In this document: one piece after another, positions 14,985-54,211 of the stretch
Position numbering within the stretch: position 1 is the stretch's first letter
Layout of the letters: every line of letters starts with the position of its first letter
Source of the DNA: Candidatus Omnitrophota bacterium
GTDB taxonomy: Bacteria; Omnitrophota; Gorgyraeia; Gygaellales; Profunditerraquicolaceae
Direction: 5' to 3'
Length of the DNA stretch: 64,000 nt
Assembly: GCA_041653955.1 (NCBI GenBank)
Contig: JBAZEH010000004.1
Location: 5,191-69,190 of the forward strand
Notes under the pieces: generated by a model
Told to the model about the DNA's origin: nothing
The model's database searches: none
The model's input: only the letters and a program-made list of their open reading frames with translations
Position numbers and translations under genes: made by a program

Positions 14985-15974
14985 ATGGGTATAAAATGGA
15001 GAGATTTTCAGTTACCAAAAAGGCTGGAGTGCGACGAGTCAACTTATACGCAGACGTACGGAAAATTCTTCGCTTCCCCTTTTGAGAGAGGTTACGGCGT
15101 TACTCTGGGTAATTCCCTTAGGCGCGTCCTGCTTTCTTCCATAGAAGGGAGCGCTGTGACTTCGGTTAAGATACAGGGGGTACAGCATGAATTTACTACT
15201 ATACCGGGGGTTCTGGAAGATATCCCGGAAATAATCCTGAATATAAAGAGCCTTGTGCTTAACTCGCGCTCAAAAATACCAAAGACCATATTCCTGAAAA
15301 AGAACACCAAGGGTGAGGTAAAGGCCAAGGACATAGATGCCGGGGAAGCCATAGAGGTGGTGAACCCGGAACTCCATATCGCTACGCTTACCAAAGATAC
15401 GAAGTTCAACGTAGAGATGGAAGTAGCCAGAGGCAGGGGTTATGTGACGTCGGAACTGAACAAGAAAGAAGGGCTGCCTATCGGCATGATCCCCATAGAT
15501 TCCGTATTTACTCCCGTAAAGAAGGTCAATTTTTATTCAGAGAACACGCGCGTAGGGCAAAGGACAGATTACGATAAACTTGTCCTTGAGGTATGGACTA
15601 ACGGAGCGATAAGCCCGAAGGACGCGCTTCTTTATGCCTCTAACATACTGCAAAGGCACCTGGATATCTTTGTCAATTTCGGGCAGCTTCCCGAAGATAT
15701 AGAAGAAGAGCCGGAGATGACGCAGGAAGAGTTCTCGTTATATGAAAAGCTAAGGCTGCCTATATCCGAACTGGAACTATCGGTAAGAAGCTCTAATTGT
15801 TTAAGAGAAGCCAATATCAAGGTGATCGCCGACCTCGTAAAGAGGTCTGAAGAAGAGATGTTAGGATTCAAGAATTTCGGTAAAAAATCCCTTATCGAGA
15901 TCAAAGAGCTTATCGCCGGTATGGGGTTGACCCTGGGTATGCAGATAGATCCCAAAAAACTCAAGAAATCATGA
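14985..15974 (+). CDS. rpoA: DNA-directed RNA polymerase subunit alpha
   Basis: 329 aa; N-terminal dimerisation domain and C-terminal domain. Confidence 0.96.
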   Translation: MGIKWRDFQLPKRLECDESTYTQTYGKFFASPFERGYGVTLGNSLRRVLLSSIEGSAVTSVKIQGVQHEFTTIPGVLEDIPEIILNIKSLVLNSRSKIPKTIFLKKNTKGEVKAKDIDAGEAIEVVNPELHIATLTKDTKFNVEMEVARGRGYVTSELNKKEGLPIGMIPIDSVFTPVKKVNFYSENTRVGQRTDYDKLVLEVWTNGAISPKDALLYASNILQRHLDIFVNFGQLPEDIEEEPEMTQEEFSLYEKLRLPISELELSVRSSNCLREANIKVIADLVKRSEEEMLGFKNFGKKSLIEIKELIAGMGLTLGMQIDPKKLKKS

Positions 15975-16549
15975 GACACTCTAAAGATAGGCTGCAATTA
16001 AACCGTTTCACAAGCTGGCGTAAGGCCACATTGGCAAGCCTGGCAAGGAGCCTGGTCACTTATCAGAGGATCAGGACCACAAAGGCCAAGGCCAAGGCCG
16101 TAAAGCCGCTGGCTGAAAAACTGATATCCCTCGGCAAGAGCAACACGCTTGCCGCTAAAAGACAGGCCTTCAGCATCCTGGGCGACCATAGGCTGGTAAA
16201 GGAGCTTTTTAACGATATAGCCCCGCGTTTCGCGAACAGGACCGGCGGTTATACCCGTATCGTTAATCTCGGCTCAAGGCGCGGGGATAACGCGCAATTA
16301 GTGGTCCTGGCTTTTACCGAGATCAAGGAGAAGATCCGCAAAAAGCCCGAATTAAAGGAGCATAAGGAAGCGCATAAACCGCTGCCCGAAGGGGAGCAAT
16401 CCGCGATAAAAGAGCAGCATACGCAAGAAGAGAAGCCTAAAACCGAGACAGCGGTCAAAGATAAGAAACCGCCTATCACTAAAAAGCCCACAAAGAAATT
16501 CTTAGGAGGTTTGCGAGGGATATTCAAAAAAGAGCGTGATTCTTTATAA
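15971..16549 (+). CDS. rplQ: 50S ribosomal protein L17 with a ~70-aa K/E-rich C-terminal extension
   Basis: 192 aa; L17 core followed by a ...KEHKEAHKPLPEGEQ...KKPTKK tail. Confidence 0.9.
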   Translation: MRHSKDRLQLNRFTSWRKATLASLARSLVTYQRIRTTKAKAKAVKPLAEKLISLGKSNTLAAKRQAFSILGDHRLVKELFNDIAPRFANRTGGYTRIVNLGSRRGDNAQLVVLAFTEIKEKIRKKPELKEHKEAHKPLPEGEQSAIKEQHTQEEKPKTETAVKDKKPPITKKPTKKFLGGLRGIFKKERDSL

Positions 16550-16569
16550 TAACTACATAAGATATCTCA

Positions 16570-17745
16570 ATGCGAATAGATATCAGGATAGCGAAACGTC
16601 TCGAAAAGATAAATCCTTCCTCGACCCTAGCAATAACCGCTAAAGCCAAGAAGTTAAAGTCAGAAGGCCGTGATATAGTTAATTTTGCTGCGGGTGAGCC
16701 TGACTTTGACACTCCCGATTTCATAAAGGAGGCCGCTATAGCGGCGATAAAGGGTGGATTTACCAAATATACGCCCTCTACCGGCACCCCGGAATTAAAA
16801 AAGGTAATCTCCGAGAAATTCCACAGAGATAATTCACTCGAATACGACCCGTCTCAAATAGTCGTATCCTGCGGCGCCAAACACAGCATATTCAACGCCT
16901 TATTAGTGCTTATAAACAAGGCTGATGAGGTCATAATACCTTCTCCTTACTGGGTGAGCTATCCGGAGATGGTTAATTTGTGTGAAGGTAAGGCGCGCTT
17001 CATAAAAACCATCCCTGAAAACGGATTTAAGATGACAGCCGGGGAGCTGGAAAAGAATATCACCCCCAAAACCAAAGTATTGATATTGAACAGCCCCTCT
17101 AACCCCACCGGATGCGTTTATACCCGCGACGAGCTTGAGCGGATCGCCGGCATATGCGCGGCAAAGAAGATATTCATCATAAGCGACGAGATATACGAAA
17201 AGCTCATATATGACGGCGGAAAACACGTTTCTATAGCTTCTTTGAGCAAGGATATTTATAATCTCACCGTTACCGTTAACGGCCTTTCTAAAAGCCATTC
17301 AATGACCGGATGGAGAATAGGTTATCTGGCGGCCCCCGCGGACGTTACTGCCGCGATATCCAAGGTCCAGGACCATTCTACCTCTAACCCGGTATCCATC
17401 AGCCAGAAGGCGGCCGTAGCCGCGTTAAGCTCAAGCGATGATTTTTGCAGAGAGATGGCTTCCGAATTCCAGAAGAGGAGGGATTACGCATTAGAAAGGC
17501 TCGGCAGGATCAAGAAAATTTCTTTTATCAAACCGCAGGGGGCATTTTATATTTTCTGCGATATCTCAAAGAGCGGGCTTGATTCTTCAACTTTCGCGGG
17601 CCGGCTCCTTGAGGAAACCTATGTAAGCATTATCCCGGGCGAAGGGTTTGGCGTTGACAATTATGTGCGCATAAGCTTTGCCACCGGCCTTGAACGCATA
17701 GAAAAAGGAATGGACAGGATAGAGGATTGGGTAAACAAACTATAA
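16570..17745 (+). CDS. PLP-dependent aminotransferase class I (aspartate / aminoadipate type)
   Basis: 391 aa; SKSHSMTGWRIGY PLP-lysine motif. Confidence 0.9.
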   Translation: MRIDIRIAKRLEKINPSSTLAITAKAKKLKSEGRDIVNFAAGEPDFDTPDFIKEAAIAAIKGGFTKYTPSTGTPELKKVISEKFHRDNSLEYDPSQIVVSCGAKHSIFNALLVLINKADEVIIPSPYWVSYPEMVNLCEGKARFIKTIPENGFKMTAGELEKNITPKTKVLILNSPSNPTGCVYTRDELERIAGICAAKKIFIISDEIYEKLIYDGGKHVSIASLSKDIYNLTVTVNGLSKSHSMTGWRIGYLAAPADVTAAISKVQDHSTSNPVSISQKAAVAALSSSDDFCREMASEFQKRRDYALERLGRIKKISFIKPQGAFYIFCDISKSGLDSSTFAGRLLEETYVSIIPGEGFGVDNYVRISFATGLERIEKGMDRIEDWVNKL

Positions 17746-17749
17746 TAAT

Positions 17750-19003
17750 ATGAACGGGACTATAGCGGAAAAAATATTGAGCGCTCATTCAGGCAGGAAA
17801 CTCAGCGCCGGGGATCTTGCCATATGCAAGGTAGATTTTTCCTTTGGGCAGGACGGGACTTCATCAATAATCATAGATAGGGTGAGGGATATGGGGCTCA
17901 AAGAGCTAAAAACTAAATTCTGCATGGTTATTGACCATAGCGCCCCATCCCCAAGTGAAGGCGTGTCCCGCGTCCATAAGAAGATGCGCTCATTCAGCTC
18001 TGAATATGACGCTCCCCTTTACGATATAGGCTGTGGAGTCTGCCATCAGGTAATACCTGAATCCGGAGAGGTCCTCCCCGGGAACCTGGTCTTGGGGGCT
18101 GACTCGCATACCTGCACTTACGGAGCCCTGGGTGCCTTTGCTACAGGCGTAGGTTCAACAGACCTGGCGATCAGCTTAGCTGCCGGGAAGAACTGGTTCA
18201 AGGTCCCCGAGACGATAAAGATAATAGTGAACGGCAGGATACCTAAAGGGGTATCAGCAAAGGATATCATCCTGCATATAATTACCGATGTGACCGCAAG
18301 CGGCGCCACTTACAAGGCGATAGAATTCAGCGGCAGCGCGATAGATAAGCTGGGTATGGACGGCCGTTTCACCATATGCAATATGGTAGTAGAGATGGGA
18401 GCGAAATGCGGTTTTATGCCGCAGGATAAGAAGACTACCTCCTGGCTTAAGTCAAGGGGCGTAAAGAATAGTAAGATAAAGCCGGTAAAGGCGGACAGCT
18501 CGGCGAAATACATAAAGACAATAGAATATAATATTTCAAAGCTTTGCCCGCAGGTATCAAGGCCCCATAGCGTGGATAGCGCAGTAGCGGCCGCGGAACT
18601 GGGTAATATAAAAATAAATGAAGCGTTTCTAGGCACCTGCACTAATGGCCGCCTTGAAGACCTTAGGGCGGCAGCAGCCATGCTTAAATCCAGAAAAGTC
18701 TCGCCCGCAGTAAGGTTTATCATTGCGCCGGCTTCGCGCGCCATATTCCGTGAGGCATTAAGATCAGGTATCGTGGATATTTTTATTAAGGCAGGGGCTG
18801 TAATGGTCTCTCCCGGTTGCGGGCCGTGCGTCGGTACCCACAACGGGGTTCCCGCAGACGGTGAAGCGGTCATATCCACCGCTAACAGGAACTTTAAAGG
18901 CAGGATGGGCAACCCTAATGCCTTCATTTATCTTGGGTCTCCTTTGACGGTCACCGCCTCGGCTATAAAAGGGCGTATTACCGACCCAAGAGAACTCTTA
19001 TAA
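17750..19003 (+). CDS. aconitase-family large subunit, LeuC/homoaconitase type (about 417 aa)
   Basis: Aconitase-family catalytic region (GVCHQ, ADSHTCTYGA); Fe-S cluster Cys ligands at TCTNGR and SPGCGPCVG. Confidence 0.85.
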   Translation: MNGTIAEKILSAHSGRKLSAGDLAICKVDFSFGQDGTSSIIIDRVRDMGLKELKTKFCMVIDHSAPSPSEGVSRVHKKMRSFSSEYDAPLYDIGCGVCHQVIPESGEVLPGNLVLGADSHTCTYGALGAFATGVGSTDLAISLAAGKNWFKVPETIKIIVNGRIPKGVSAKDIILHIITDVTASGATYKAIEFSGSAIDKLGMDGRFTICNMVVEMGAKCGFMPQDKKTTSWLKSRGVKNSKIKPVKADSSAKYIKTIEYNISKLCPQVSRPHSVDSAVAAAELGNIKINEAFLGTCTNGRLEDLRAAAAMLKSRKVSPAVRFIIAPASRAIFREALRSGIVDIFIKAGAVMVSPGCGPCVGTHNGVPADGEAVISTANRNFKGRMGNPNAFIYLGSPLTVTASAIKGRITDPRELL

Positions 19004-19017
19004 TCCAGGAGGTTGAT

Positions 19018-20064
19018 ATGGAAATACGCAGTCTGCTCGTGCTATGTATAGAGAAAAATGCTTCTGACCTGCATTTAACGGAAAATGAGCCGCCGATATT
19101 GCGCATTGACGGCAAGCTTGTCCGCACGCAATTACCTCCTTTAACCAGGGATGACTTAAAGATGCTGGCATACAGCGTTTTAAGTAATAGCCAGAAAGAA
19201 ATGCTGGAGAGGGACCTTGAGCTGGATTTCTCCGTGGCTCTCCCCGAATTAGACAGGTTCAGGGTCAATATCCATATTCAGAAGGGTTCGGTAGAGTCGG
19301 CTTTCAGGAGGGTCCCTTTGCAGATACCGAGCATAGAACAACTGGGGTTGCCTAATATAGTCCTGGAACTCGCCCGAAGGCCGAACGGCCTAGTGCTGGT
19401 GACCGGGCCTACGGGTATGGGTAAAACCACTACCCTGGCGGCGATGATAAACCTGATAAATAATGAGAAGGAATCCCTGATAATTTGTATTGAAGACCCG
19501 ATAGAATTCATACACGCAAACAAAAAAAGCATAGTTAAGCAAAGGGAAGTTTACGCTGACACCCACTCTTTTGCCCAGGCATTAAGGCATGCGTTAAGGC
19601 AGGACCCGAATGTGATAGTAGTAGGGGAAATGAGGGATTTAGAAACTATAACAACGGCTCTTACCGCCGCTGAAACAGGCCATCTTGTGCTGGCAACCCT
19701 TCATACTCCGGACGCCCCGCAGACCGTAGAAAGGATAATAGATGTATTCCCTCCCTATCAACAGCAACAGGTAAGGCTGCAGCTGGCGAACTGCCTGCAG
19801 GGGGTAATATCGCAGTTATTATTGCCTTCAGCCACAGGAAAAGGCAGGGTGCTGGCTACAGAGATAATGCTCGGCACATCTGGCATAAGAAATCTTATTC
19901 GCGAACAAGAGATAGAACAGATACCTACCCTTATGCAGACAGGGAGCCAATACGGCATGAAGACAATGGATAAATCCTTAAAGGAGCTTTATCAGAAAGG
20001 GCTTATCGGCCTTGACGTAGCGATGTCCAGGGTAAAAAGCAACGAGGAGTTCCATCAGCTATGA
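19018..20064 (+). CDS. pilT: type IV pilus retraction ATPase PilT
   Basis: 348 aa; Walker A GPTGMGKTTT; PilT-type Asp box and His box. Confidence 0.9.
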   Translation: MEIRSLLVLCIEKNASDLHLTENEPPILRIDGKLVRTQLPPLTRDDLKMLAYSVLSNSQKEMLERDLELDFSVALPELDRFRVNIHIQKGSVESAFRRVPLQIPSIEQLGLPNIVLELARRPNGLVLVTGPTGMGKTTTLAAMINLINNEKESLIICIEDPIEFIHANKKSIVKQREVYADTHSFAQALRHALRQDPNVIVVGEMRDLETITTALTAAETGHLVLATLHTPDAPQTVERIIDVFPPYQQQQVRLQLANCLQGVISQLLLPSATGKGRVLATEIMLGTSGIRNLIREQEIEQIPTLMQTGSQYGMKTMDKSLKELYQKGLIGLDVAMSRVKSNEEFHQL

Positions 20065-20561
20065 AGATAGAAGGCACCGGAGTAAGATTAGGGGATAATA
20101 TAAATACCGATTTTATCATTTCGGGCAGGTATAAGTTTTCCATAACAGATATGAAGGAGCTCTCCAAGCATATTATGGAGGATATAGACCCTGATTTCCC
20201 GAGCAAAATAGTATCCGGGGAATCCATAATTGTGGCGGGAGATAATTTTGGCATGGGCTCATCGCGGGAGCAGGCGCCGCTGGTGATCAAAGAGTGCGGG
20301 ATCCAGGCGGTATTAGCCAAGTCATTCGCCCGCATATTTTACCGTAACGGTTTTAATATAGGCCTGCTTCTAATAGAGACCGATACCGATAAGATAGGCG
20401 AAAATGACAAACTCTTTATAGATACCGATAAAGGCATGGTCAGGAATATTACCAGGAATATAGAGATGAAAATAAACCCCCTGCCCGGTTTTATGCAGGA
20501 GATATTGAAAGAGGGCGGGATAGTCAACTATTTTAAAAAACACGGGGAGTTAAAAATATAA
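20061..20561 (+). CDS. aconitase-family small subunit (LeuD-like swivel domain)
   Basis: 166 aa; [14 protein letters not shown] motif; ATGA overlap with pilT. Confidence 0.85.
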
Positions 20562-20562
20562 C

Positions 20563-21648
20563 ATGCCTATTCACAAAATAACTTTAATACCGGGGGATGG
20601 GATAGGGCCGGAGGTTGCGGAAGCCGCGAGGAGATGTGTTGAGGCAACCGGTGTCAAGGTAGATTGGGATACTGTTGTCGCGGGGCAGGAGGCCATAGAT
20701 AAATACGGGAATATACTTCCCGAAGGCGTCCTTGAGTCAGTCAGGAAGAATAAGGTCGCGCTGAAAGGGCCGATAGTCACACCTATCGGAGAGGGTTTCC
20801 GTTCGGTTAATGTTGCTATAAGGCACGCCCTTGACCTGTACGCCTGCGTGAGGCCGGCAAAATCTTATCCCGGGGTAAGAAGCCCGTATAAAGATATAGA
20901 CCTTTTGATCGTGCGCGAGAACAGCGAGGACCTTTACGCCGGCATAGAATTTGAAGAAGGCAAGCCGGAAACGAAAAAACTAATATCCGAGATAGAGGCC
21001 GGGACAAAAAAGAAGATACGCCCTGATTCCGGTATTTCCATAAAACCTATATCCAGGTACGCTTCCGAGAGGATAGTGCGTTTTGCCTTTGAGTATGCCG
21101 TCAAATACGGGCGCAAGAAGGTCACGGCCGTGCATAAGGCGAATATCATGAAATTCACCGACGGGCTGTTCCTTAAGGCGGCGCGCGAGGTCGCAAAAGA
21201 ATATGCCGGCAGGATAAATTTTGAAGAAGCGATAGTGGACAATATGTGCATGCAGCTGGTGCAAAAACCGAGGAACTACGATATACTCGTGCTGCCCAAC
21301 CTTTACGGCGATATAATATCAGACCTTTGCGCGGGCCTTGTAGGAGGACTTGGCGTGGCCCCGGGAGCGAATATAGGCGATGATATGGCGGTATTTGAGG
21401 CGGTGCACGGTTCAGCCCCCAAATATAAAGGGATGAACAAAGTAAACCCGGTAGCGATGATATTATCAGGGGTGCTGATGTTAAGGCATATAAAAGAAGA
21501 TGCCGCGGCCGATAAGCTGGAAGGCGCGGTAAAGAAAATCCTCGCTGAAGGTAAATACGTAACATATGACTTGAAGGCCGACCGCGATGACCCTTCCAGC
21601 GCAGGGACGCGCGAGATGGCTGACGCTATTATAAAAGAGATAAGATGA
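20563..21648 (+). CDS. NAD-dependent isocitrate/homoisocitrate dehydrogenase (beta-decarboxylating dehydrogenase family)
   Basis: 361 aa; ALKGPIVTP...[19 protein letters not shown] resembles NAD-IDH more than LeuB. Confidence 0.8.
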
Positions 21649-22580
21649 AAATATCCGTGATAGGCGCGGGAAATGTAGGCGGTTTAACCGCTATGCGGCT
21701 GGCTGAAACAGGTATCGGCGAGATACTCCTGGTGGATATAGCCAAAGGCCTTGCTCATGGCAAGGCGCTGGATATGGAGGATAGCGCTTCGGTCATGCGG
21801 TTTAACTATAGCATTCTGGGCACGGATGATATGGAGCAGGTAAAAGGCTCGGACATAACCGTCATCACCGCCGGATTAGCCCGCAAGCCCGGGATGACCA
21901 GAGAAGAGCTGCTTGTCAAGAACGCCGGTATATTAAAAGATGTGTGCCTGAAAGTCAGGGGACTCTCCCCGGATTCAATAGTGATAATAGTGACTAATCC
22001 CCTGGATATAATGACATACCTGGCTTTAAAAGTAACGGGGTTTCCTTCAAGCAGGGTTATCGGGATGGGTGTAAGCCTGGACGCGGGGAGGTTCGCTAAT
22101 CTTATCAGCCGCGAATTAAGAATGCCTTATACTGATATTGAGGCGTGCGTTATAGGCAGCCACGGAGAAGGGATGTTGCCTTTGCCGCGGCTTACTACCG
22201 TAAAAGGCGTTGAATTAAATGAGCTCCTTACCGAAGAGGCGGTAAACACCTTAACCAGGAGGACGCGGGAACGCGGCATTGAGATAGTCTCCGCGCTTGG
22301 AAGCGGAAGCGCGTATTTCGCCCCTTCACAGGCAATAGCCGCGCTCGTTAAGGCGATAGCAAAAGATACCAAATCCACTATCGGGGTATCCGCTTGCCTT
22401 AACGGAGAGTACGCCGAAAAAGATATATGTATCGGCGTGCCATGCCGCCTGGGCAGGAACGGCATAGAAAAAATAATAGAACTTGAATTGAACGAAGAAG
22501 AGAAGGCGCTTTTCGCGCAGGCAGCCGGCTCTATCCGCAAGAACTTAGAATTAATCAAACAGTTTTATCATGGATTATGA
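21645..22580 (+). CDS. mdh: malate dehydrogenase (LDH/MDH family)
   Basis: 311 aa; [13 protein letters not shown] Rossmann fold; overlaps the upstream gene by 4 nt. Confidence 0.88.
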
Positions 22581-23880
22581 CCTGGCGGTAATAGGCGCTG
22601 GCTGGGCAGGCTTTAATTCCGCGCTAAAGGCAAAGGCGCTTGGCTTAAAAGTCGCGCTGATAGAAAAGGAACAAATAGGCGGAACATGCCTTAATCGAGG
22701 ATGCATCCCCGCCAAGGCGCTTATCCAATCCTCCAGGGTTTACAATCTCGCCAAAAGATCCGGCATATTCGGCGTAAAGGCCGCTGAGCCGGAAATAGAC
22801 CTCGCGCAGATACACTCAAGAAAAAACAAAATAATAGAGCAATTACGGCAGGGTATGTCTTTTTCCCTTCGGGGGATAGACCTGTTGAGCGGGGAGGCCC
22901 GCATAACCGGCAGCAATACCTTAAGGGTCGGCGCAAAAGATATCAGCTCCAGGTTTATGCTTATAGCAACCGGCTCAAAGCCCGCGCAGCTTAAAGGGAT
23001 AAGATTTGACGCAGATAAGATCGTATCCAGCGACGATATGCTGGCATCAGAGAGCGTCCCGGGCTCCCTTTTGATCATAGGCGCGGGAGCGATCGGCTGT
23101 GAGTTCGCTAACCTGTTTGCGTCGTTCGGTTCTAAGGTCACTATTGTTGAGATGATGCCGCAGCTGCTTCCCGGCATAGATAAGGAAGCCGCCAGGAAGG
23201 CAGAGGCCGCTTTTAAAAAGAAGGGTATTGAAGTAGTAACATCTGCCGACGCTAACAGGTTTGACCTGTCACGTTACGATAAGGTGCTGCTTTCTGTGGG
23301 CCGCTCTGCTGTTACCGAGGGGCTGGGCCTGGAGCAACTCGGCATAAAAACTGAAAAAGGGATGGTTATCGTTGACGATTCGCTTAAGACCAGTATACCG
23401 AATATATACGCGGCAGGCGACTGCGCGAGCAGGATAATGCTCGCGCATTTTGCCGCTTATCAGGGTTGTATCGCCGCCGAAAATATGGCAGCAGGGCCCT
23501 CGGGAAACCTCAAAAGATCGGATGAGCGCTGCGTGCCGGCCTGTATATTTACGGAACCCGAGATAGGGGCAGTTGGGCTGACTGAGGATGAAGCAAAGGA
23601 AAGAAAAATAGATATAAATGTGAATAAATTTGATCTCCTGGGTTCCGGCATGGCCCGCATAATGGATGAGGCAAACGGCTTTATAAAAATAATATCGTTT
23701 AAAGGCACCGAAGAGGTGGCCGGCGCTTCCATAGTAGGGCCGCGGGCAGCGGAATTAATAGGGATACTTGCCGTAGCCGTGCAATCCCGCCTTAAAACCT
23801 CTCAGATAAGGGATACTATATTCGCGCATCCCACACTCTCCGAAGGGATAATTAGCGCATTAAAAGGGTATGGAGTTTGA
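22570..23880 (+). CDS. lpdA: dihydrolipoyl dehydrogenase (E3)
   Basis: 436 aa; GGTCLNRGCIPAK redox-active disulfide; FAD and NAD folds. Confidence 0.92.
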   Translation: MDYDLAVIGAGWAGFNSALKAKALGLKVALIEKEQIGGTCLNRGCIPAKALIQSSRVYNLAKRSGIFGVKAAEPEIDLAQIHSRKNKIIEQLRQGMSFSLRGIDLLSGEARITGSNTLRVGAKDISSRFMLIATGSKPAQLKGIRFDADKIVSSDDMLASESVPGSLLIIGAGAIGCEFANLFASFGSKVTIVEMMPQLLPGIDKEAARKAEAAFKKKGIEVVTSADANRFDLSRYDKVLLSVGRSAVTEGLGLEQLGIKTEKGMVIVDDSLKTSIPNIYAAGDCASRIMLAHFAAYQGCIAAENMAAGPSGNLKRSDERCVPACIFTEPEIGAVGLTEDEAKERKIDINVNKFDLLGSGMARIMDEANGFIKIISFKGTEEVAGASIVGPRAAELIGILAVAVQSRLKTSQIRDTIFAHPTLSEGIISALKGYGV

Positions 23881-24508
23881 GGTATTTGATTTAGGATTAA
23901 CGGGTTTTGAGGAAGCGCTGCGTTTCCAGAAGGAATTATTCAGCAGGGTAAAAGCGGGCGCGCTTAACGGTGCCCTGGTGCTTTGCAGCCATCATCCTGT
24001 AATCACAACAGGAAGGCGCGCGAAAGCAGGAGCTATCCTGGTTTCTGATATTGAACTGGAACGCCGCGGTATACCCGTATATCAAACTGAAAGGGGAGGG
24101 GAAGTTACTTATCATGGCCCGGGCCAGCTTACTTTATATCCGGTCATCAACCTTGGCCGGTTAAAGAAAGATATACGCTATTTTTTAAGGGAGCTGGAAG
24201 GCTCGGCGATAGATATGCTCTCTGAACTTGGCATCAAAGGGTCAAGGCGCGGCCGCCTTACCGGGGTATGGGTAGAAGGGCGCAAGGTGGCTTCAATAGG
24301 GATAGCCGTGAGGAATTGGATCACCTTTCATGGCATGAGTATAAATATAAAGAAGGACGATTTAAGCAATTTCCGGCTTATCAGGCCATGCGGTATGGAT
24401 ATACGGATGACTTCAGTTGAAACGGTTTCAGGCAGGAGCATAGATATGGCGCAGGTAGGCGCTATGCTCACGGATGGGCTCAAGAAAAGATTCTCAACGG
24501 TTAACTAA
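23870..24508 (+). CDS. lipB: octanoyltransferase LipB
   Basis: 212 aa; LipB family with the conserved Cys and RRG region. Confidence 0.85.
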   Translation: MEFEVFDLGLTGFEEALRFQKELFSRVKAGALNGALVLCSHHPVITTGRRAKAGAILVSDIELERRGIPVYQTERGGEVTYHGPGQLTLYPVINLGRLKKDIRYFLRELEGSAIDMLSELGIKGSRRGRLTGVWVEGRKVASIGIAVRNWITFHGMSINIKKDDLSNFRLIRPCGMDIRMTSVETVSGRSIDMAQVGAMLTDGLKKRFSTVN

Positions 24509-24522
24509 AGGAGGCCGCCAAT

Positions 24523-24753
24523 ATGACTAACGTAATCTTACCTGAATTGGGAGAAGGTATCATAAAAGCGACTATTTCCTACTGGTATTTCAAGGAAGGG
24601 GATAAGGTCAATGAAAAGGATGATCTAGTCGAGCTCGCTACGGATAAGGCCACATTTAACCTGCCCAGCCCCTGCGCGGGGGTCCTTTCGCAGATAGCAT
24701 TTAAAGAAGGGGATGAGGTAAATGTTGGTGAGGTGCTTGCCGCTATAGAATGA
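24523..24753 (+). CDS. standalone lipoyl-attachment domain protein (76 aa)
   Basis: ELATDKATFNLPSPCAGVL matches the E2 lipoyl-lysine (DKA) motif; no E2 catalytic domain follows. Confidence 0.75.
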   Translation: MTNVILPELGEGIIKATISYWYFKEGDKVNEKDDLVELATDKATFNLPSPCAGVLSQIAFKEGDEVNVGEVLAAIE

Positions 24754-28174: not shown

Positions 28175-28668
28175 GCGATTTAATAATAAACTGGTTAAAT
28201 GGTGTTCCTAAAGAATATGTAGTCTTGCTTTTAGGGGCGCTGCCTATATCGGAATTAAGAGGCGCCATACCACTCGCCCTTTCATTCGGGTTTCCGCTGT
28301 ATAAGGCTTACTGGTTATCTGTCGCCGGTAATCTTATCCCGGTTATCCCGTTGCTTTTTTTGCTTGAGCCCGTATCCAGCAGGTTAAGAAAATTCAAGGT
28401 ATGGTCGCGTTTCTTTGACTGGCTCTTTGAGCGGACAAAGCGCAAGGCAGAAACAGTGCAAAAATATGAAGCATTAGGCCTGGCTTTATTTGTTGCTATA
28501 CCCCTTCCGGTAACAGGGGCATGGACCGGCATAGTAGCGGCATCTTTATTCAAGATAAGGTTCAGGTACGCGTTTATCGCCATAGTATGCGGGGTTTTGA
28601 CAGCAGGGTTGATAGTCTCTGCGCTATGCGCGCTGGGGATGATAAGCTGGAGGGCTATATCCCAATGA
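28171..28668 (+). CDS. small polytopic membrane protein (COG2426-like, putative small export protein)
   Basis: 165 aa with four hydrophobic segments; call from family resemblance only. Confidence 0.5.
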   Translation: MSDLIINWLNGVPKEYVVLLLGALPISELRGAIPLALSFGFPLYKAYWLSVAGNLIPVIPLLFLLEPVSSRLRKFKVWSRFFDWLFERTKRKAETVQKYEALGLALFVAIPLPVTGAWTGIVAASLFKIRFRYAFIAIVCGVLTAGLIVSALCALGMISWRAISQ

Positions 28669-29168
28669 TACACGTATATACCGGTAACGGCAAAGGAAAG
28701 ACTACCGCGGCGCTTGGAATGGCATTAAGAGCCGCGGGGGCGGGGCTTAAGGTATATATCTGTCAGTTCGCTAAAGGGAGGAGCTACAGCGAGCTACGCT
28801 CATTAAAAAAACTCAAGAATATAAAGATAGAGCAGTTTGGAACCACCTGTTTTATCAGGAGAAAAGCAGGCAGGAAAGATATAAAATTAGCGCAAGATGG
28901 ATTAAGGCATGCAGAAAAAGCGATACGCGGCGGGAAATATGATATGATAGTATTGGATGAGATCAATATCGCCCTGCATCTTGGCCTCTTGGTAAAAAAA
29001 GATATCCTGGGGGCCATGAAAGCGGCCCCGGCAAGAATAGAATTGGTGCTTACCGGGCGCTACGCGCATCCTGAAGTCATCAAAGCCGCTGACCTGGCGA
29101 GTGAAATAAAAGAACTGAAGCATTATTATAAAAAAGGCGTAAAAGCGAGAAGAGGGATAGAGTTTTAA
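28665..29168 (+). CDS. cobO: cob(I)yrinic acid a,c-diamide (corrinoid) adenosyltransferase CobO/BtuR type; start at MIHVYTGNGKGKTTAA
   Basis: P-loop GNGKGKTTAA with CobO-family conservation; ATGA overlap with the upstream gene. Confidence 0.85.
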   Translation: MIHVYTGNGKGKTTAALGMALRAAGAGLKVYICQFAKGRSYSELRSLKKLKNIKIEQFGTTCFIRRKAGRKDIKLAQDGLRHAEKAIRGGKYDMIVLDEINIALHLGLLVKKDILGAMKAAPARIELVLTGRYAHPEVIKAADLASEIKELKHYYKKGVKARRGIEF

Positions 29169-29176
29169 AATTTCAC

Positions 29177-29211
29177 TTGACATAAAAACCGCTTTGAATT
29201 ATTATACAAGC
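29177..29211 (+). promoter_or_regulatory. sigma70-like promoter (TTGACA, 17 nt, TATTAT) for the downstream membrane-protein gene
   Basis: ttgacataaaaaccgctttgaattattat read directly. Confidence 0.6.
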
Positions 29212-29223
29212 AAACGGAGGTAG

Positions 29224-29733
29224 TTGATGCTCGCGATATTTTTGATCATAGCAGGAATACTATTAAGAGTTGCGCCGCATTCCCCTAATTTTACTCCCGT
29301 CGCTGCAATAGCGCTTTTTGGCGGCTGCTACCTTAGAAAAAAATACGCCCTTATCGTGCCTCTGGCGTTAATGATCGTCAGCGACCTGGCGATAGGCCTG
29401 CATGACGTATTTATCTTTACCTGGGGCGGTTTTCTCCTGGTCAGCATGATCGGCCTTTGGTTAAAAAACCATAAAGGCGTATCCACAACTGTATCCGCAT
29501 CATTAGTTTCTTCCGTCATATTTTATATAGTATCTAATTTCGGAGTATGGCTCATGGGTTATTATCCGCGTAACCCCGCGGGGCTCATCAGCTGTTATGC
29601 AATGGCCCTGCCGTTTTTACGCGCCTTTACATTTTCAACATTGTTTTACACAGCGGTATTTTTCGGCATATACGAATTGACCGCTTATTTTGTCAAAGAT
29701 ACAAAGTTATCCAAAGTTCTTTTAACGAATTAA
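29224..29733 (+). CDS. small five-TM membrane protein of unknown function (possibly an ECF-S/DUF6580-like substrate-binding component) inside the B12 locus
   Basis: 169 aa, highly hydrophobic; own promoter; location between cobO and the riboswitch/btuB. Confidence 0.4.
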   Translation: MMLAIFLIIAGILLRVAPHSPNFTPVAAIALFGGCYLRKKYALIVPLALMIVSDLAIGLHDVFIFTWGGFLLVSMIGLWLKNHKGVSTTVSASLVSSVIFYIVSNFGVWLMGYYPRNPAGLISCYAMALPFLRAFTFSTLFYTAVFFGIYELTAYFVKDTKLSKVLLTN

Positions 29734-29742
29734 CAGTTATAT

Positions 29743-29885
29743 AGGATAGGGAAGGCCGTAAAAGCGGCCGCAGTCCCGCTGCTGTATAAGGGTACGAAAG
29801 CCCCAAGGGCCACTGGCAAAGATGCTGGGAAGGTCGGGCGAGTAGGATGATCCTTGAGCCAGAAGACCTGCCTATATAGAGGTAC
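29743..29885 (+). promoter_or_regulatory. cobalamin (AdoCbl) riboswitch aptamer
   Basis: GGGAAGGCCGTAAAAGCGGCCGCAGTCCCGCTGCTGT core, B12 box GCCACTG at 29809-29815, 3' GAGCCAGAAGACCTGCC, upstream of a TonB-dependent receptor gene. Confidence 0.85.
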
Positions 29886-29923
29886 GTGCCTCGCGGACAA
29901 GGGCGAAGATGAAATCAGGGTGC

Positions 29924-29970
29924 AGCCCCGAAAAAACAAAAATTATTTTTGTTTTTTTCGGGGTTTTTTA
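29924..29970 (+). terminator. intrinsic terminator serving as the riboswitch expression platform
   Basis: ccccgaaaaaacaaaa...ttttgtttttttcgggg stem followed by TTTTTT, 24 nt before the btuB-like ATG. Confidence 0.8.
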
Positions 29971-29993
29971 TTGTCCGGGAAAGGAAAGAAGCA

Positions 29994-32066
29994 ATGCGCG
30001 GCAAAGTAGCAGGAGGTATCTGTATCACAGTATTGCTGGTATCAAGCTTATGGGCAGCAGAGGAAACGCCGGTAGCAGCGTTGGATAAAATAGTAGTTAC
30101 TCCGTATCGTTATGCGGAATCATTAGGAAAAACAGTATCAAGTATTACCGTAATAACTTCGGATGAAATAAAGAATTCTAATGCTGAAAAAGTTATCGAT
30201 ATCCTTAGGCCAGTTCCTGGATTGGTAGTAAGAGATTGGTATGGTAATGGCACAAAAGCATCTGTTGATATGGCGGGGTTTGGCGAACAAGGGGGCTTAA
30301 ATGTCTTAGTCTTGATAGACGGGAGGCGCGCGAATGACGTTGATTTAAGCGGAGTCGACTGGAACCAAATCCCATTAGAACAGGTAGAACGGATTGAAAT
30401 CATACGTGGCGGCTCTGCAGCAGTATTATATGGGGACAACGCTTCGTCAGGAGTAATTAATATAATAACTAAAAAAGGTTCGGGAAAACCTACAGTCAAT
30501 ATCAAGACTCAATACGGCAGCTATGATACGCATAAAGAGAGCCTTTCCTTGGGCGGAGAGATTAATGATAAATTCTCGTATATGTTTAATGCTGGGCAGG
30601 GAGCAACCCATGGTTACCGCGATAACAGCTATGAGAAAACTACTGACTTTTCATCAAAACTTGAGCATAAGTTTACCGACGCTTTATCTGTACATTTCAA
30701 TTCTGGTTTTCATACCTCATCCTATGGTATGCCTGCTTCCTTATGGCAGGAGTATATAGACGCGCATAATAGGAGATACTCGAAACATGCCGATGATCAT
30801 GCTAACAACAAAGACTATTATTTTATCGTAGGAGGTAAGGCTGATTTTTCATCTTTGGGCGGGATAGATATCGATTTTAGCTACCGTGAAAAGACTACTA
30901 ATTCGTTTTTTCTGACCTCTGGCCTGAATACACAGAAAAACAGGATAAGAACCTTTGGCGTAACCCCAAAATATACATTGGGTAATAGCATCTTAGGCCG
31001 TGATAACAAGCTAATAGCAGGCATTGATTATTATCAGGCTAATTATCGTTCGGATAGGTTCAGTCTTACAAAAGATGATGATCCCAAAAGTTATAGTCGC
31101 GTCAATAAGACTTCTGTAGGCACTTATCTGCAAGACGAGTTTTCTATTTTTGACAAGCTGACTCTGACAGGCGGTTATCGGAGGGAAGCAGTACGCTACG
31201 CTTTAGGCTATCACGATTTTAGCTTTTATAACCCCGATATCGACACAAGCGTCAAGCCCAAGAAAGAGATATTCAATACAGGGCTCGTGTATAATTACGC
31301 AAAGGGATCCAGCGCATTTTTTAATGCCGGAAAGAGTTTCCGTTTTCCTGAAGTCGATGAGTTTACATACAATGATGCTTCGTGGCAGCAGAGACTAAAT
31401 ACTGACCTTAAGCCACAGACTTCTATGAACTACCAGATAGGGGCAAGGCATAAGTTTTCAGACATCTTGAAGTGCGACTTATCTATATATAGGATGTATG
31501 TAAAGGACGAGATCTATTATGATCCTAAGTCTTTCACGGATTTTTGGGGTTCATGGATGGGTAAGAACACAAATTATGACAAAACTATTCATGAAGGCGT
31601 CGAGGCTTCTTTTAATGCGAAGATTAGTGAAAAAATAGATCTTATGGGTAATTACGCGTTGACCAAGGCGTATTTTGACGGAGGCCAATATGATAATAAC
31701 GATATACCTATGGTTCCTAGGCATAAGGGGAGCGTAGGGATGACATTCTCGCTATCTAAGGATATTTCTCTTAATGTAATAGGAAACTATGTAGGCAAAA
31801 GGTATTTCCTGAATGATCAGGCCAATGATTATTCTCGTCTTAATGGCTATATGACGGCCGATACTAACCTTATCTGGCGCTATAAAGACCTGGTAATAGC
31901 TTTTGGAATAAACAATATCTTTGATAGGAAATATTCTGAATATGCAGGAGTAATTATTGATAATACCTGGGAGCCTTGTAGCGGCTTAACGTGGCCTGCG
32001 GGCACAAAGTTTTATTATCCTTCAGCAGGCAGGAATTTCTCAATCAGAATGGATTATAAATTCTAA
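29994..32066 (+). CDS. TonB-dependent outer-membrane receptor, BtuB-like (start at MRGKVAGG with signal peptide)
   Basis: Plug domain plus 22-strand barrel; ends in a C-terminal aromatic residue (F); sits downstream of the B12 riboswitch. Confidence 0.88.
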   Translation: MRGKVAGGICITVLLVSSLWAAEETPVAALDKIVVTPYRYAESLGKTVSSITVITSDEIKNSNAEKVIDILRPVPGLVVRDWYGNGTKASVDMAGFGEQGGLNVLVLIDGRRANDVDLSGVDWNQIPLEQVERIEIIRGGSAAVLYGDNASSGVINIITKKGSGKPTVNIKTQYGSYDTHKESLSLGGEINDKFSYMFNAGQGATHGYRDNSYEKTTDFSSKLEHKFTDALSVHFNSGFHTSSYGMPASLWQEYIDAHNRRYSKHADDHANNKDYYFIVGGKADFSSLGGIDIDFSYREKTTNSFFLTSGLNTQKNRIRTFGVTPKYTLGNSILGRDNKLIAGIDYYQANYRSDRFSLTKDDDPKSYSRVNKTSVGTYLQDEFSIFDKLTLTGGYRREAVRYALGYHDFSFYNPDIDTSVKPKKEIFNTGLVYNYAKGSSAFFNAGKSFRFPEVDEFTYNDASWQQRLNTDLKPQTSMNYQIGARHKFSDILKCDLSIYRMYVKDEIYYDPKSFTDFWGSWMGKNTNYDKTIHEGVEASFNAKISEKIDLMGNYALTKAYFDGGQYDNNDIPMVPRHKGSVGMTFSLSKDISLNVIGNYVGKRYFLNDQANDYSRLNGYMTADTNLIWRYKDLVIAFGINNIFDRKYSEYAGVIIDNTWEPCSGLTWPAGTKFYYPSAGRNFSIRMDYKF

Positions 32067-52912: not shown

Positions 52913-52934
52913 ATAGCGCCTACCTTGCGCTATT
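52912..52934. terminator. short GC-rich hairpin between the convergent aroB and gspB genes
   Basis: atagcgc-ctacctt-gcgctat inverted repeat. Confidence 0.35.
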
Positions 52935-53390
52935 CAGAAGTTTTATACCCGCCCCGTCAAATTCCAGGTCCACTTCGTCTGCGGTTATCTTTAATACTGT
53001 CGCCCCGTCTATATTGTCTCCGGGCTCTACCACGCGGTTATTTATCAGGGCGTAGCTTCCGTCGTCGGCATAAAATATCCCGTTCAGCACAAAAGACGGG
53101 GTAGGCTGCGGAGCTTCAGGGGGAGCGGGCACTGCCTCAACAGCAGGCGCGGGAGGAGGCGGGAGGGGCTGGGCAGGAGGAACAGCCTCAACAACAGGAG
53201 GCGCCTGCACCGGAGGTTTTGGCGCCAGCTGCCGATAAGAAAGATTCACTATAAAAAACACCGTTACCAAAACTAATATTAAAAGCAAATAGCTCCTGCG
53301 TTTGTTCCCGGGGCGCCTTTCTGTTTTTGCGGCCGTGTTCGCGCCTTGGGATAATTCCACTTTTTTTAACGCGTCATATATTATGCTCAT
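52920..53390 (-). CDS. GspB/ExeB-like protein
   Basis: MSIIYDALKK N-terminus, one TM segment, Pro-rich linker, C-terminal domain; overlaps exeA. Confidence 0.65.
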   Translation of the reverse strand: MSIIYDALKKVELSQGANTAAKTERRPGNKRRSYLLLILVLVTVFFIVNLSYRQLAPKPPVQAPPVVEAVPPAQPLPPPPAPAVEAVPAPPEAPQPTPSFVLNGIFYADDGSYALINNRVVEPGDNIDGATVLKITADEVDLEFDGAGIKLLNSAR

Positions 53391-54211
53391 TGGGCATGAT
53401 CCGCAGAATAAGTTCCCAGCTCTTTAAGGCACATATCTATGATGCTCCGGCCTATGGCTTTTTTCTCCGCCACAAACCCGGCAAGGAGCGCGCGGTCACA
53501 GATTATATTGACAAGGCGGGGGACCCCCGATGAAAAATCAGATATCATCCTGACCGCGTCCTCATCAAAACTTACGCTGCTGCCGGCCCCTGCCACACGC
53601 AAGCGATGATTTATATATTCGCCGACCTCTTCGCGCATAAGGGGGGCAATATGGTACCTGACCATTATCCTTTGGCGTACCTGGCGCAGCTCATACAGGT
53701 TGAGCTTACTGTTTAATTCCGGCTGGCCCATTAATACTATCTGCATAAGCTTATCTTTTTCGGTCTCAAGGTTTGACAATAGGCGCACCTGCTCCAATGC
53801 CGCGGGCTTAAGGTTTTGCGCCTCATCTATTATCAGAACGACATTCCCTCCGGCCTTGGATTCACTTAAAAGAAAATTATTAAGCTCGCGGACGATAGAT
53901 AACCTTGACTTGTTTTTTACCTTAAGGCCGAAGTCATTGGCTATCGCCTCCAGCAGTTCTATTTCGGAAAAATAAGGGTTAAGTATAAAGGCGGTCTTGA
54001 TATCCCGCGGGAGTTGTTTCAGCAAGAAGCGGCATAAGGTGGTTTTTCCGGTGCCTATCTCTCCGGTAACGGCCACTATCCCTTTTCTCTGTGTTACGCC
54101 GTAAAAGAGGTGAGAGAGGGCTTCTTTGTGTTTTTTACTTAAGAAAAAGAAGGCGGGATCGGAAGTTACGTTGAATGGCCTTTCTTTGAGACCATAAAAT
54201 TGGCAATACAT
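53387..54211 (-). CDS. ExeA/GspA-like AAA ATPase (short form without a peptidoglycan-binding domain)
   Basis: 274 aa; MYCQFYGLKERPF N-terminus; Walker A GEIGTGKTT. Confidence 0.8.
   Translation of the reverse strand: MYCQFYGLKERPFNVTSDPAFFFLSKKHKEALSHLFYGVTQRKGIVAVTGEIGTGKTTLCRFLLKQLPRDIKTAFILNPYFSEIELLEAIANDFGLKVKNKSRLSIVRELNNFLLSESKAGGNVVLIIDEAQNLKPAALEQVRLLSNLETEKDKLMQIVLMGQPELNSKLNLYELRQVRQRIMVRYHIAPLMREEVGEYINHRLRVAGAGSSVSFDEDAVRMISDFSSGVPRLVNIICDRALLAGFVAEKKAIGRSIIDMCLKELGTYSADHAQ

Follow-up and report, generated by a model that had tools for sequence, protein, structure and literature searches.

Why would the gene of a pilus motor lie between the two subunit genes of a metabolic enzyme? 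The question is raised by a stretch of 64,000 nucleotides (nt) from a Candidatus Omnitrophota bacterium (GenBank assembly GCA_041653955.1, contig JBAZEH010000004.1, positions 5,191 to 69,190; hereafter the window), in which pilT, the gene of the type IV pilus retraction ATPase, separates the genes for the large (acnL) and the small (acnS) subunit of an aconitase-family dehydratase. Large and small subunit genes of such dehydratases are normally adjacent. The initial annotation of this DNA had placed pilT between aconitase-type subunit genes and had described an ATGA overlap of its stop codon with the small-subunit start. Both observations hold: the three open reading frames (ORFs) score above the cut-offs of their family profiles, and the overlap can be read in the sequence at 20061-20064. 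Comparison with relatives indicates that acnL-pilT-acnS is a standard and very old gene order of the Omnitrophota lineage, not a one-off event. We consider it likely that an ordinary PilT gene was inserted long ago between the subunit genes, is co-transcribed with core metabolism and is held there by operon and overlap constraints. The three genes and their junctions are as follows.

17750-19003, plus strand: acnL, aconitase/HacA/LeuC-family large subunit, 417 aa (NF001614, TIGR01343, Pfam)
19004-19017, plus strand: acnL-pilT spacer of 14 nt with the Shine-Dalgarno sequence AGGAGG at 19007-19012 (read from the sequence)
19018-20064, plus strand: pilT, type IV pilus retraction ATPase, 348 aa (TIGR01420)
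20044-20064, plus strand: pilT/acnS junction, in which the acnS ATG (20061-20063) overlaps the pilT TGA (20062-20064) as ATGA (...CAG CTA TGA)
20061-20561, plus strand: acnS, LeuD/HacB-type small subunit, 166 aa (TIGR02087, Pfam Aconitase_C)

Gene order in Omnitrophota and a deep sister clade

A scan of one genome per species of the Genome Taxonomy Database (GTDB) yielded 80 loci with PilT proteins 75-83% identical to that of the window, nearly all labelled Omnitrophota, in which we placed the ten proteins of the window's gene block by tblastn. In all 78 informative loci acnS lies immediately 3' of pilT, and acnL lies immediately 5' of it in 77 of 79. The loci fall in at least two classes, Velamenicoccia and Gorgyraia (genome table of Seymour et al. 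2023, PMC10066038). Four further PilT subclades, picked by clustering 248 PilT sequences, all have the standard order, and more than 90 contigs from independent assemblies share the junctions of the window. An identical contig of 3.2 kb, independently assembled from SRR18595300, carries the same acnL-pilT-acnS-icd junctions. A PilT identical to that of the window is on record, under this name, in an NCBI metagenome-assembled genome (MAG) of Candidatus Omnitrophota, and thousands of PilT proteins from the same phylum are 80-86% identical. The synteny comparison proposed in the initial annotation thus returned the same arrangement in relatives, whose genes NCBI routinely annotates as PilT, and the gene order is therefore typical of the lineage and not special to this genome.

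The trio acnL-pilT-acnS, all on the plus strand, is part of a tightly packed block, rpoA-rplQ-aspAT-acnL-pilT-acnS-icd-mdh-lpd-lipB, and this full order is common to the relatives as far as their contigs reach. rpoA and rplQ form the end of the ribosomal-protein/RNA polymerase alpha cluster, with the metabolic block directly downstream, and they lie upstream of the block in most related loci too. The other members of the block, a candidate promoter and the gene 3' of the block are listed here.

14985-15974, plus strand: rpoA (NCBIfam rpoA, 426 bits)
15971-16549, plus strand: rplQ, ribosomal protein L17 (NCBIfam L17, 118 bits)
16523-16550, plus strand: best sigma-70-like promoter match, TTCAAA-16-TATAAT, 10/12, just 5' of aspAT (consensus match only)
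16570-17745, plus strand: aspAT, class I/II (aspartate-type) aminotransferase, first gene of the metabolic block (Pfam Aminotran_1_2, 2e-79)
20563-21648, plus strand: icd, isocitrate/homoisocitrate-type dehydrogenase (profile matches)
21645-22580, plus strand: mdh, malate dehydrogenase (profile matches)
22570-23880, plus strand: lpd, dihydrolipoyl dehydrogenase (profile matches)
23870-24508, plus strand: lipB, LipB (profile matches)
24523-24753, plus strand: stand-alone lipoyl-domain protein, 76 aa

Two Velamenicoccia species among the 80 loci (L059, L077) have MarC, nucleotidyltransferase and GNAT genes upstream of pilT-acnS-icd-mdh-lpd-lipB. More distant relatives were found by scanning a metagenome collection with a degenerate DNA pattern, a GMQT-type PilT C-terminus followed 106-166 nt on by a LeuD-type N-terminal motif, which matches none of the 80 loci. 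Three contigs were obtained, all three with pilT-acnS and with a PilT 65-72% identical to that of the window; acnL lies upstream in the two that are long enough to show it (L082, L083). L082 belongs to a small clade with PilT proteins of 367-371 aa, in which gene contexts vary widely. As its RpoA is only 56-60% identical to that of named Omnitrophota, compared with 74-90% among the 80 loci, this clade is by sequence identity a deep sister lineage whose closest named RpoA relatives are Omnitrophota.

One genome of the sister clade carries the ribosomal cluster followed by rpoA-rplQ-aspAT-acnL-pilT-acnS and then a class-III aminotransferase gene, another has acnL-pilT-acnS-HU-HisRS, and yet another has the trio amid unrelated genes. 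Downstream genes are quite different in L086, L088 and L090, where pilT-acnS is kept. Two species (L085, GCA_015494465.1 contig 11; L098, GCA_053991395.1) have the order tautomerase-pilT-acnS-HU-HisRS-PFK with no acnL nearby, and rpoA-rplQ, located on another contig of the L085 assembly (L096, contig 1), leads into unrelated genes. Where acnL is not adjacent, acnS shows 80-83% identity compared with 77-81% in genomes with an adjacent acnL, and its GSSREQAP motif is intact. The breaks fall between acnL and pilT, which fits the spacer between these two genes: its median length is 20 nt, it reaches a maximum of 273 nt, and there is no overlap in any of 75 related loci. Overall, pilT-acnS is the only adjacency that stays unbroken through every rearrangement observed, and the conserved core is this pair, usually with acnL in front.

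In the sister clade pilT and acnS overlap by 35-38 nt. The PilT proteins concerned (L082, L085, L086, L088, L090, L098) have a C-terminal extension of 19-23 aa ending in KGxxFWG, and this conserved tail is an alternative-frame reading of the conserved acnS N-terminus.

Three further observations concern the related contigs themselves. The MAG JAUYEC01 has acnL-pilT-acnS on two contigs (L063 on contig 39 and L067 on contig 24, with PilT 77% and 76% identical to that of the window), which is more readily explained by a mixed bin or by strain heterogeneity than by a true duplication. Several contigs that contain the full Omnitrophota-type block (L013, L018, L022, L028, L032, L037, L041, L042, L047, L073, L079 and L081) bear the public labels 'uncultured Planctomycetales', 'Planctomycetales bacterium' or 'Deltaproteobacteria bacterium'; these labels are probably outdated or wrong. 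In the MAG contigs L005 (227-1469) and L049 (8656-9895) acnL aligns as two pieces in different frames, which could be either a frameshift due to sequencing error or the start of pseudogenisation.

The probable operon and its products

From aspAT to the gene of the lipoyl-domain protein the successive gaps are 4, 14, -4, 1, -4, -11, -11 and 14 nt. A consensus scan for terminators found no terminator-like site in any intergenic gap of the block; the terminator-like matches on the plus strand at 17814, 18907 and 24027 all lie inside genes, and their count is not above the shuffled expectation. Based on strand, short or overlapping gaps, terminator-free gaps and conserved order, aspAT-acnL-pilT-acnS-icd-mdh-lpd-lipB most likely form a single operon. 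The proposal of the initial annotation that pilT has been captured into a metabolic operon is thus supported by short gaps, gaps free of terminators and an order found lineage-wide, and we infer that pilT is co-regulated with central metabolism. Counts of promoter-like matches in the region are not above the shuffled expectation, and the match upstream of aspAT is a weak hint. An Rfam scan found no RNA elements in the metabolic block; its matches in the window, a cobalamin riboswitch and one tRNA, both lie elsewhere. Metatranscriptomes exist for a culture of Velamenicoccus archaeovorus (PMC12583861).

At the 5' end of pilT, AGGAGG lies five bases upstream of the ATG. The sequence GAGGAG (20044-20049) is located within the 3' end of pilT, 11 nt ahead of the acnS ATG. 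In 36 of 78 related loci pilT and acnS abut or overlap, mostly by the same 4 nt, and over all loci the gap between them has a median of 1 nt. Translational coupling of the two genes is probable because acnS starts on top of the pilT stop codon.

The protein encoded by pilT is a new member of the well-known PilT family, and such genes are already annotated as PilT by NCBI. Against TIGR01420 (pilT_fam) it scores 467.4 bits with a cut-off of 319.1, and residues 3-344 align to profile positions 2-343 of 343. The complete set of catalytic motifs of secretion ATPases (Walker A, Asp box, Walker B and His box) is present, together with a GIRNLIRE-type motif, which is typical of retraction-competent PilT.

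Residues 130-138 (19405-19431), plus strand: Walker A, GPTGMGKTT
Residues 158-163 (19489-19506), plus strand: Asp box, IEDPIE
Residues 196-207 (19603-19638), plus strand: Walker B, DPNVIVVGEMRD, with the catalytic Glu
Residues 220-230 (19675-19707), plus strand: His box, TGHLVLATLHT
Residues 289-296 (19882-19905), plus strand: GIRNLIRE

The best matches among solved structures are 5zfq of Geobacter sulfurreducens (396 bits) and 6ojx of G. metallireducens (385 bits), followed by 2ewv of Aquifex aeolicus (361 bits; also 2gsz) and 3jvu of Pseudomonas aeruginosa (345 bits). PilT structures overall give 334-396 bits, compared with 255 bits for PilU (9n32) and about 110 bits for PilB. Likewise, the score with the PilT model is far above those with the PilU, PilB, GspE, DotB and TadA models. 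A PilU- or PilB-like ATPase is ruled out by the profile and structure scores, and by all sequence tests that we ran the protein looks like a canonical retraction ATPase.

Each of the 80 loci encodes a full-length PilT (348-349 aa), and across these species loci the median identity to the window protein is 78%. In 57 of 66 loci pilT is the most or second most conserved of the ten genes, at a level comparable to that of RpoA. Nucleotide identities of 0.77, 0.90 and 0.42 at the three codon positions indicate that pilT is under strong purifying selection. Together, these identities and the full length of the protein in every locus rule out a pseudogene or decaying hitchhiker.

Both neighbouring subunits can be assigned to their family with confidence. 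AcnL matches Pfam Aconitase (1e-101), NF001614 (544 bits, cut-off 385) and TIGR01343 hacA_fam (521 bits, cut-off 386), and its Cys297, Cys357 and Cys360 lie in GTCTNGR and PGCGPCVG contexts as expected for 4Fe-4S ligands. AcnS matches TIGR02087 LEUD_arch (184 bits, cut-off 109) and Pfam Aconitase_C and has the GSSRE active-site motif. None of the equivalog models for the identity of the enzyme reached its cut-off: LEU2 scored 467 of the 611 needed, HacA_Meth 451 of 550 and PRK07229 aconitate hydratase 351 of 612 for the large subunit, and leud 177 of 246 and HacB 173 of 230 for the small one. The loop that sets substrate choice in the methanogen enzymes (20094-20140, residues about 12-27 of AcnS) reads GRYKFSIT and is invariant in all relatives compared. 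This position is occupied by YLRT in methanogen HacB and by YLVY in LeuD, and the substrate of the enzyme does not appear obvious from the loop. The neighbouring icd, mdh and aspAT suggest a role as aconitase in the tricarboxylic acid branch rather than in leucine or lysine synthesis. The nearest NCBIfam models of aspAT itself are aspartate aminotransferases, with scores below their cut-offs.

Some other features of the window were recorded. L17 (15971-16549, plus strand) is long, with 192 aa and a partial match to the NCBIfam 'L17 sunset domain variant' (127 bits, cut-off 280); its C-terminal extension is variable among relatives (43-73% identity). The genes of dihydrolipoyl dehydrogenase, LipB and the 76-aa lipoyl-domain protein are grouped at 22570-24753 on the plus strand, and the vicinity of this group lacks E1 and E2 genes of either a 2-oxoacid dehydrogenase or a glycine-cleavage system. 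The trio recurs in L092 and L093, and in related loci the gene 3' of lipB carries Pfam Biotin_lipoyl. A cobalamin riboswitch (29700-29889, 91 bits) is located directly 5' of a TonB-dependent receptor gene (29949-32066, plus strand), with a corrinoid adenosyltransferase gene and a DUF6580 gene upstream (28521-29733); these elements are likely a unit for vitamin B12 uptake and salvage.

Explanations for the position of pilT

According to the initial annotation no other pilus genes lie nearby, and the 64 kb window bears this out. Pfam scans that covered nearly every ORF of at least about 140 aa at 14985-62036 found no pilin, PilB, PilC or PilMNOPQ, and a search for the prepilin leader motif found none in a plausible gene of the window. 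Within 10 kb of pilT there is no other T2SSE-family ATPase in 91 related loci (1.37 Mb). In other bacteria pilT is often far from pilB/pilC and pilMNOPQ, as in the Pseudomonas pilTU locus, and its isolated position is therefore not evidence of another role. Type-4a pilus genes are reported for 135 of 141 Velamenicoccia genomes, the other classes also have them in most of their genomes, and pilus expression has been noted in Velamenicoccus archaeovorus (PMC10066038). Published work ties type-4a pili to the attached or predatory lifestyle of Omnitrophota.

Only one candidate for a link to secretion or pili lies in the window: an ExeA/GspA-like AAA_22 ATPase gene (53387-54211, minus strand), followed by that of a 156-aa protein with a proline-rich middle (both within 52920-54211). 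The C-terminal stretch of the latter presumably is GspB-like, and the two proteins could be a secretin-assembly pair.

In our preferred explanation an ancestor of the Omnitrophota lineage would have received pilT as an insertion between the large and small subunit genes of a HacA/LeuC-type dehydratase, and the order would have stayed frozen since then. The gene would be transcribed within the long housekeeping block directly behind rpoA-rplQ, and its own strong ribosome-binding site would drive its translation. Two forces could hold it in place: selection for the co-expression of both enzyme subunits from one transcript, and the overlap of the pilT stop with the acnS start, which would hinder the separation of this pair. 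In this case PilT would be a housekeeping protein, produced constitutively with the core metabolic enzymes, and would serve type-4a pili encoded elsewhere in the genome. Two points weigh against this explanation. AcnL has been split from pilT-acnS at least twice (L059/L077 and L085/L098) and pilT from acnS never, which weakens the argument that the genes are locked by operon constraints, since a functional link between pilT and acnS predicts the same pattern. In addition, sampling was mostly by PilT similarity, so that lineages without this PilT, or with it elsewhere, would be missed.

Other explanations have to be weighed against the same observations. This copy could be a paralogue that powers a type II secretion-like, Tad or DNA-uptake machine, with canonical pilT genes located in pilus clusters; a window of 64 kb without pilus genes and the lack of another T2SSE-family ATPase within 10 kb in 91 related loci would agree with this, as would the several secretion and pilus systems of Omnitrophota. 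We regard this as unlikely, given a PilT score far above those of all competing models, the retained GIRNLIRE and the fact that isolated pilT genes are common elsewhere (Pseudomonas pilTU, for example). The non-pilus role considered in the initial annotation finds no support in the sequence: the protein retains every PilT hallmark, and among solved structures it is closest to those of genuine retraction ATPases. An artefact, either mis-assembly or a recent horizontal insertion limited to this genome, has practically no chance of being the explanation: the genes have kept their full length and are conserved, SRR18595300 gave an identical 3.2 kb contig in an independent assembly, and these junctions are found again in more than 90 independent assemblies, which come from many studies and habitats. 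This recurrence rules out an assembly artefact or a recent insertion.

A further explanation is that PilT and the aconitase-like enzyme, or its small subunit, cooperate or regulate each other and that selection keeps their genes adjacent. Metabolic or iron-sulfur status might control pilus retraction, for example, or the small subunit might moonlight as a partner of PilT. The pair survives rearrangements that remove every other neighbour, which leaves a little room for a genuine functional link: pilT and acnS never separate (L059/L077, L085/L098, L086, L088 and L090 included), rpoA-rplQ of the L085 assembly leads into unrelated genes, and acnS is still 80-83% identical with GSSREQAP intact in two species without an adjacent acnL. 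However, the overlap of the reading frames alone accounts for the persistence of the pair, and with only about two independent separations of acnL the statement that pilT is always with acnS is statistically weak. PilT has no lineage-specific change in domains or motifs, the tail in the sister clade being an alternative-frame acnS start, and we found no precedent in the literature. We therefore judge such coupling to be quite improbable. Even less probable, in our estimate, is the more specific idea that pilT-acnS is a functional unit in which the small subunit, or the whole iron-sulfur enzyme, partners the PilT motor physically or in a regulatory manner. If it were true, pilus retraction, and with it attachment to or attack on host cells, would be tied to the carbon, iron or redox state. 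Should acnL be absent from the genomes of L085 and L098, their small subunit would be an orphan retained alongside PilT.

An ordinary, long-embedded pilT leaves the knowledge of how PilT or aconitase-family enzymes work unchanged, and the finding is modest but useful. Its noteworthy part is the depth of the gene order and the resilience of the pilT-acnS pair. acnL-pilT-acnS, or at a minimum pilT-acnS, provides a clean and easily scored synteny marker for Omnitrophota and the deep sister clade. The arrangement also suggests that pilT is expressed in the manner of a housekeeping gene, with core metabolism and behind the ribosomal/RNA polymerase cluster, which agrees with the view of type-4a pili as central to the attached or predatory way of living of these ultra-small bacteria. 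Finally, the resilience of the pair poses the question of whether it is held by overlapping frames alone or by a link between metabolism and pilus retraction.

Comparison with known systems

The PilT of the window shares with known PilT proteins (TIGR01420; 5zfq, 6ojx, 2ewv, 3jvu/3jvv) the full-length alignment, Walker A and B, the Asp and His boxes, xIRNLIRE and the typical length; its motif starts with Gly, whereas known PilT has AIRNLIRE. The gene differs from known pilT genes in its setting only, embedded between aconitase-family subunit genes without pilus genes nearby. The enzyme resembles the HacAB homoaconitase and LeuCD isopropylmalate isomerase (TIGR01343/TIGR02086, TIGR02087) in that both of its subunits score above the subfamily cut-offs and the ligand cysteines and GSSRE are present; compared with archaeal-type two-subunit dehydratases, its large and small subunit genes are split by pilT. 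We found no description in the literature of pilT beside aconitase or leuCD genes, and we met the arrangement acnL-pilT-acnS only in Omnitrophota and in the deep clade whose closest named RpoA relatives they are. A parallel is the ribosomal spc operon with secY, adk and map, where unrelated genes have likewise long been kept in a tightly packed, co-transcribed essential block. The window itself has secY-adk-map within its ribosomal cluster (ORF layout; Pfam in related loci). In contrast to these genes, pilT splits the two subunits of one enzyme.

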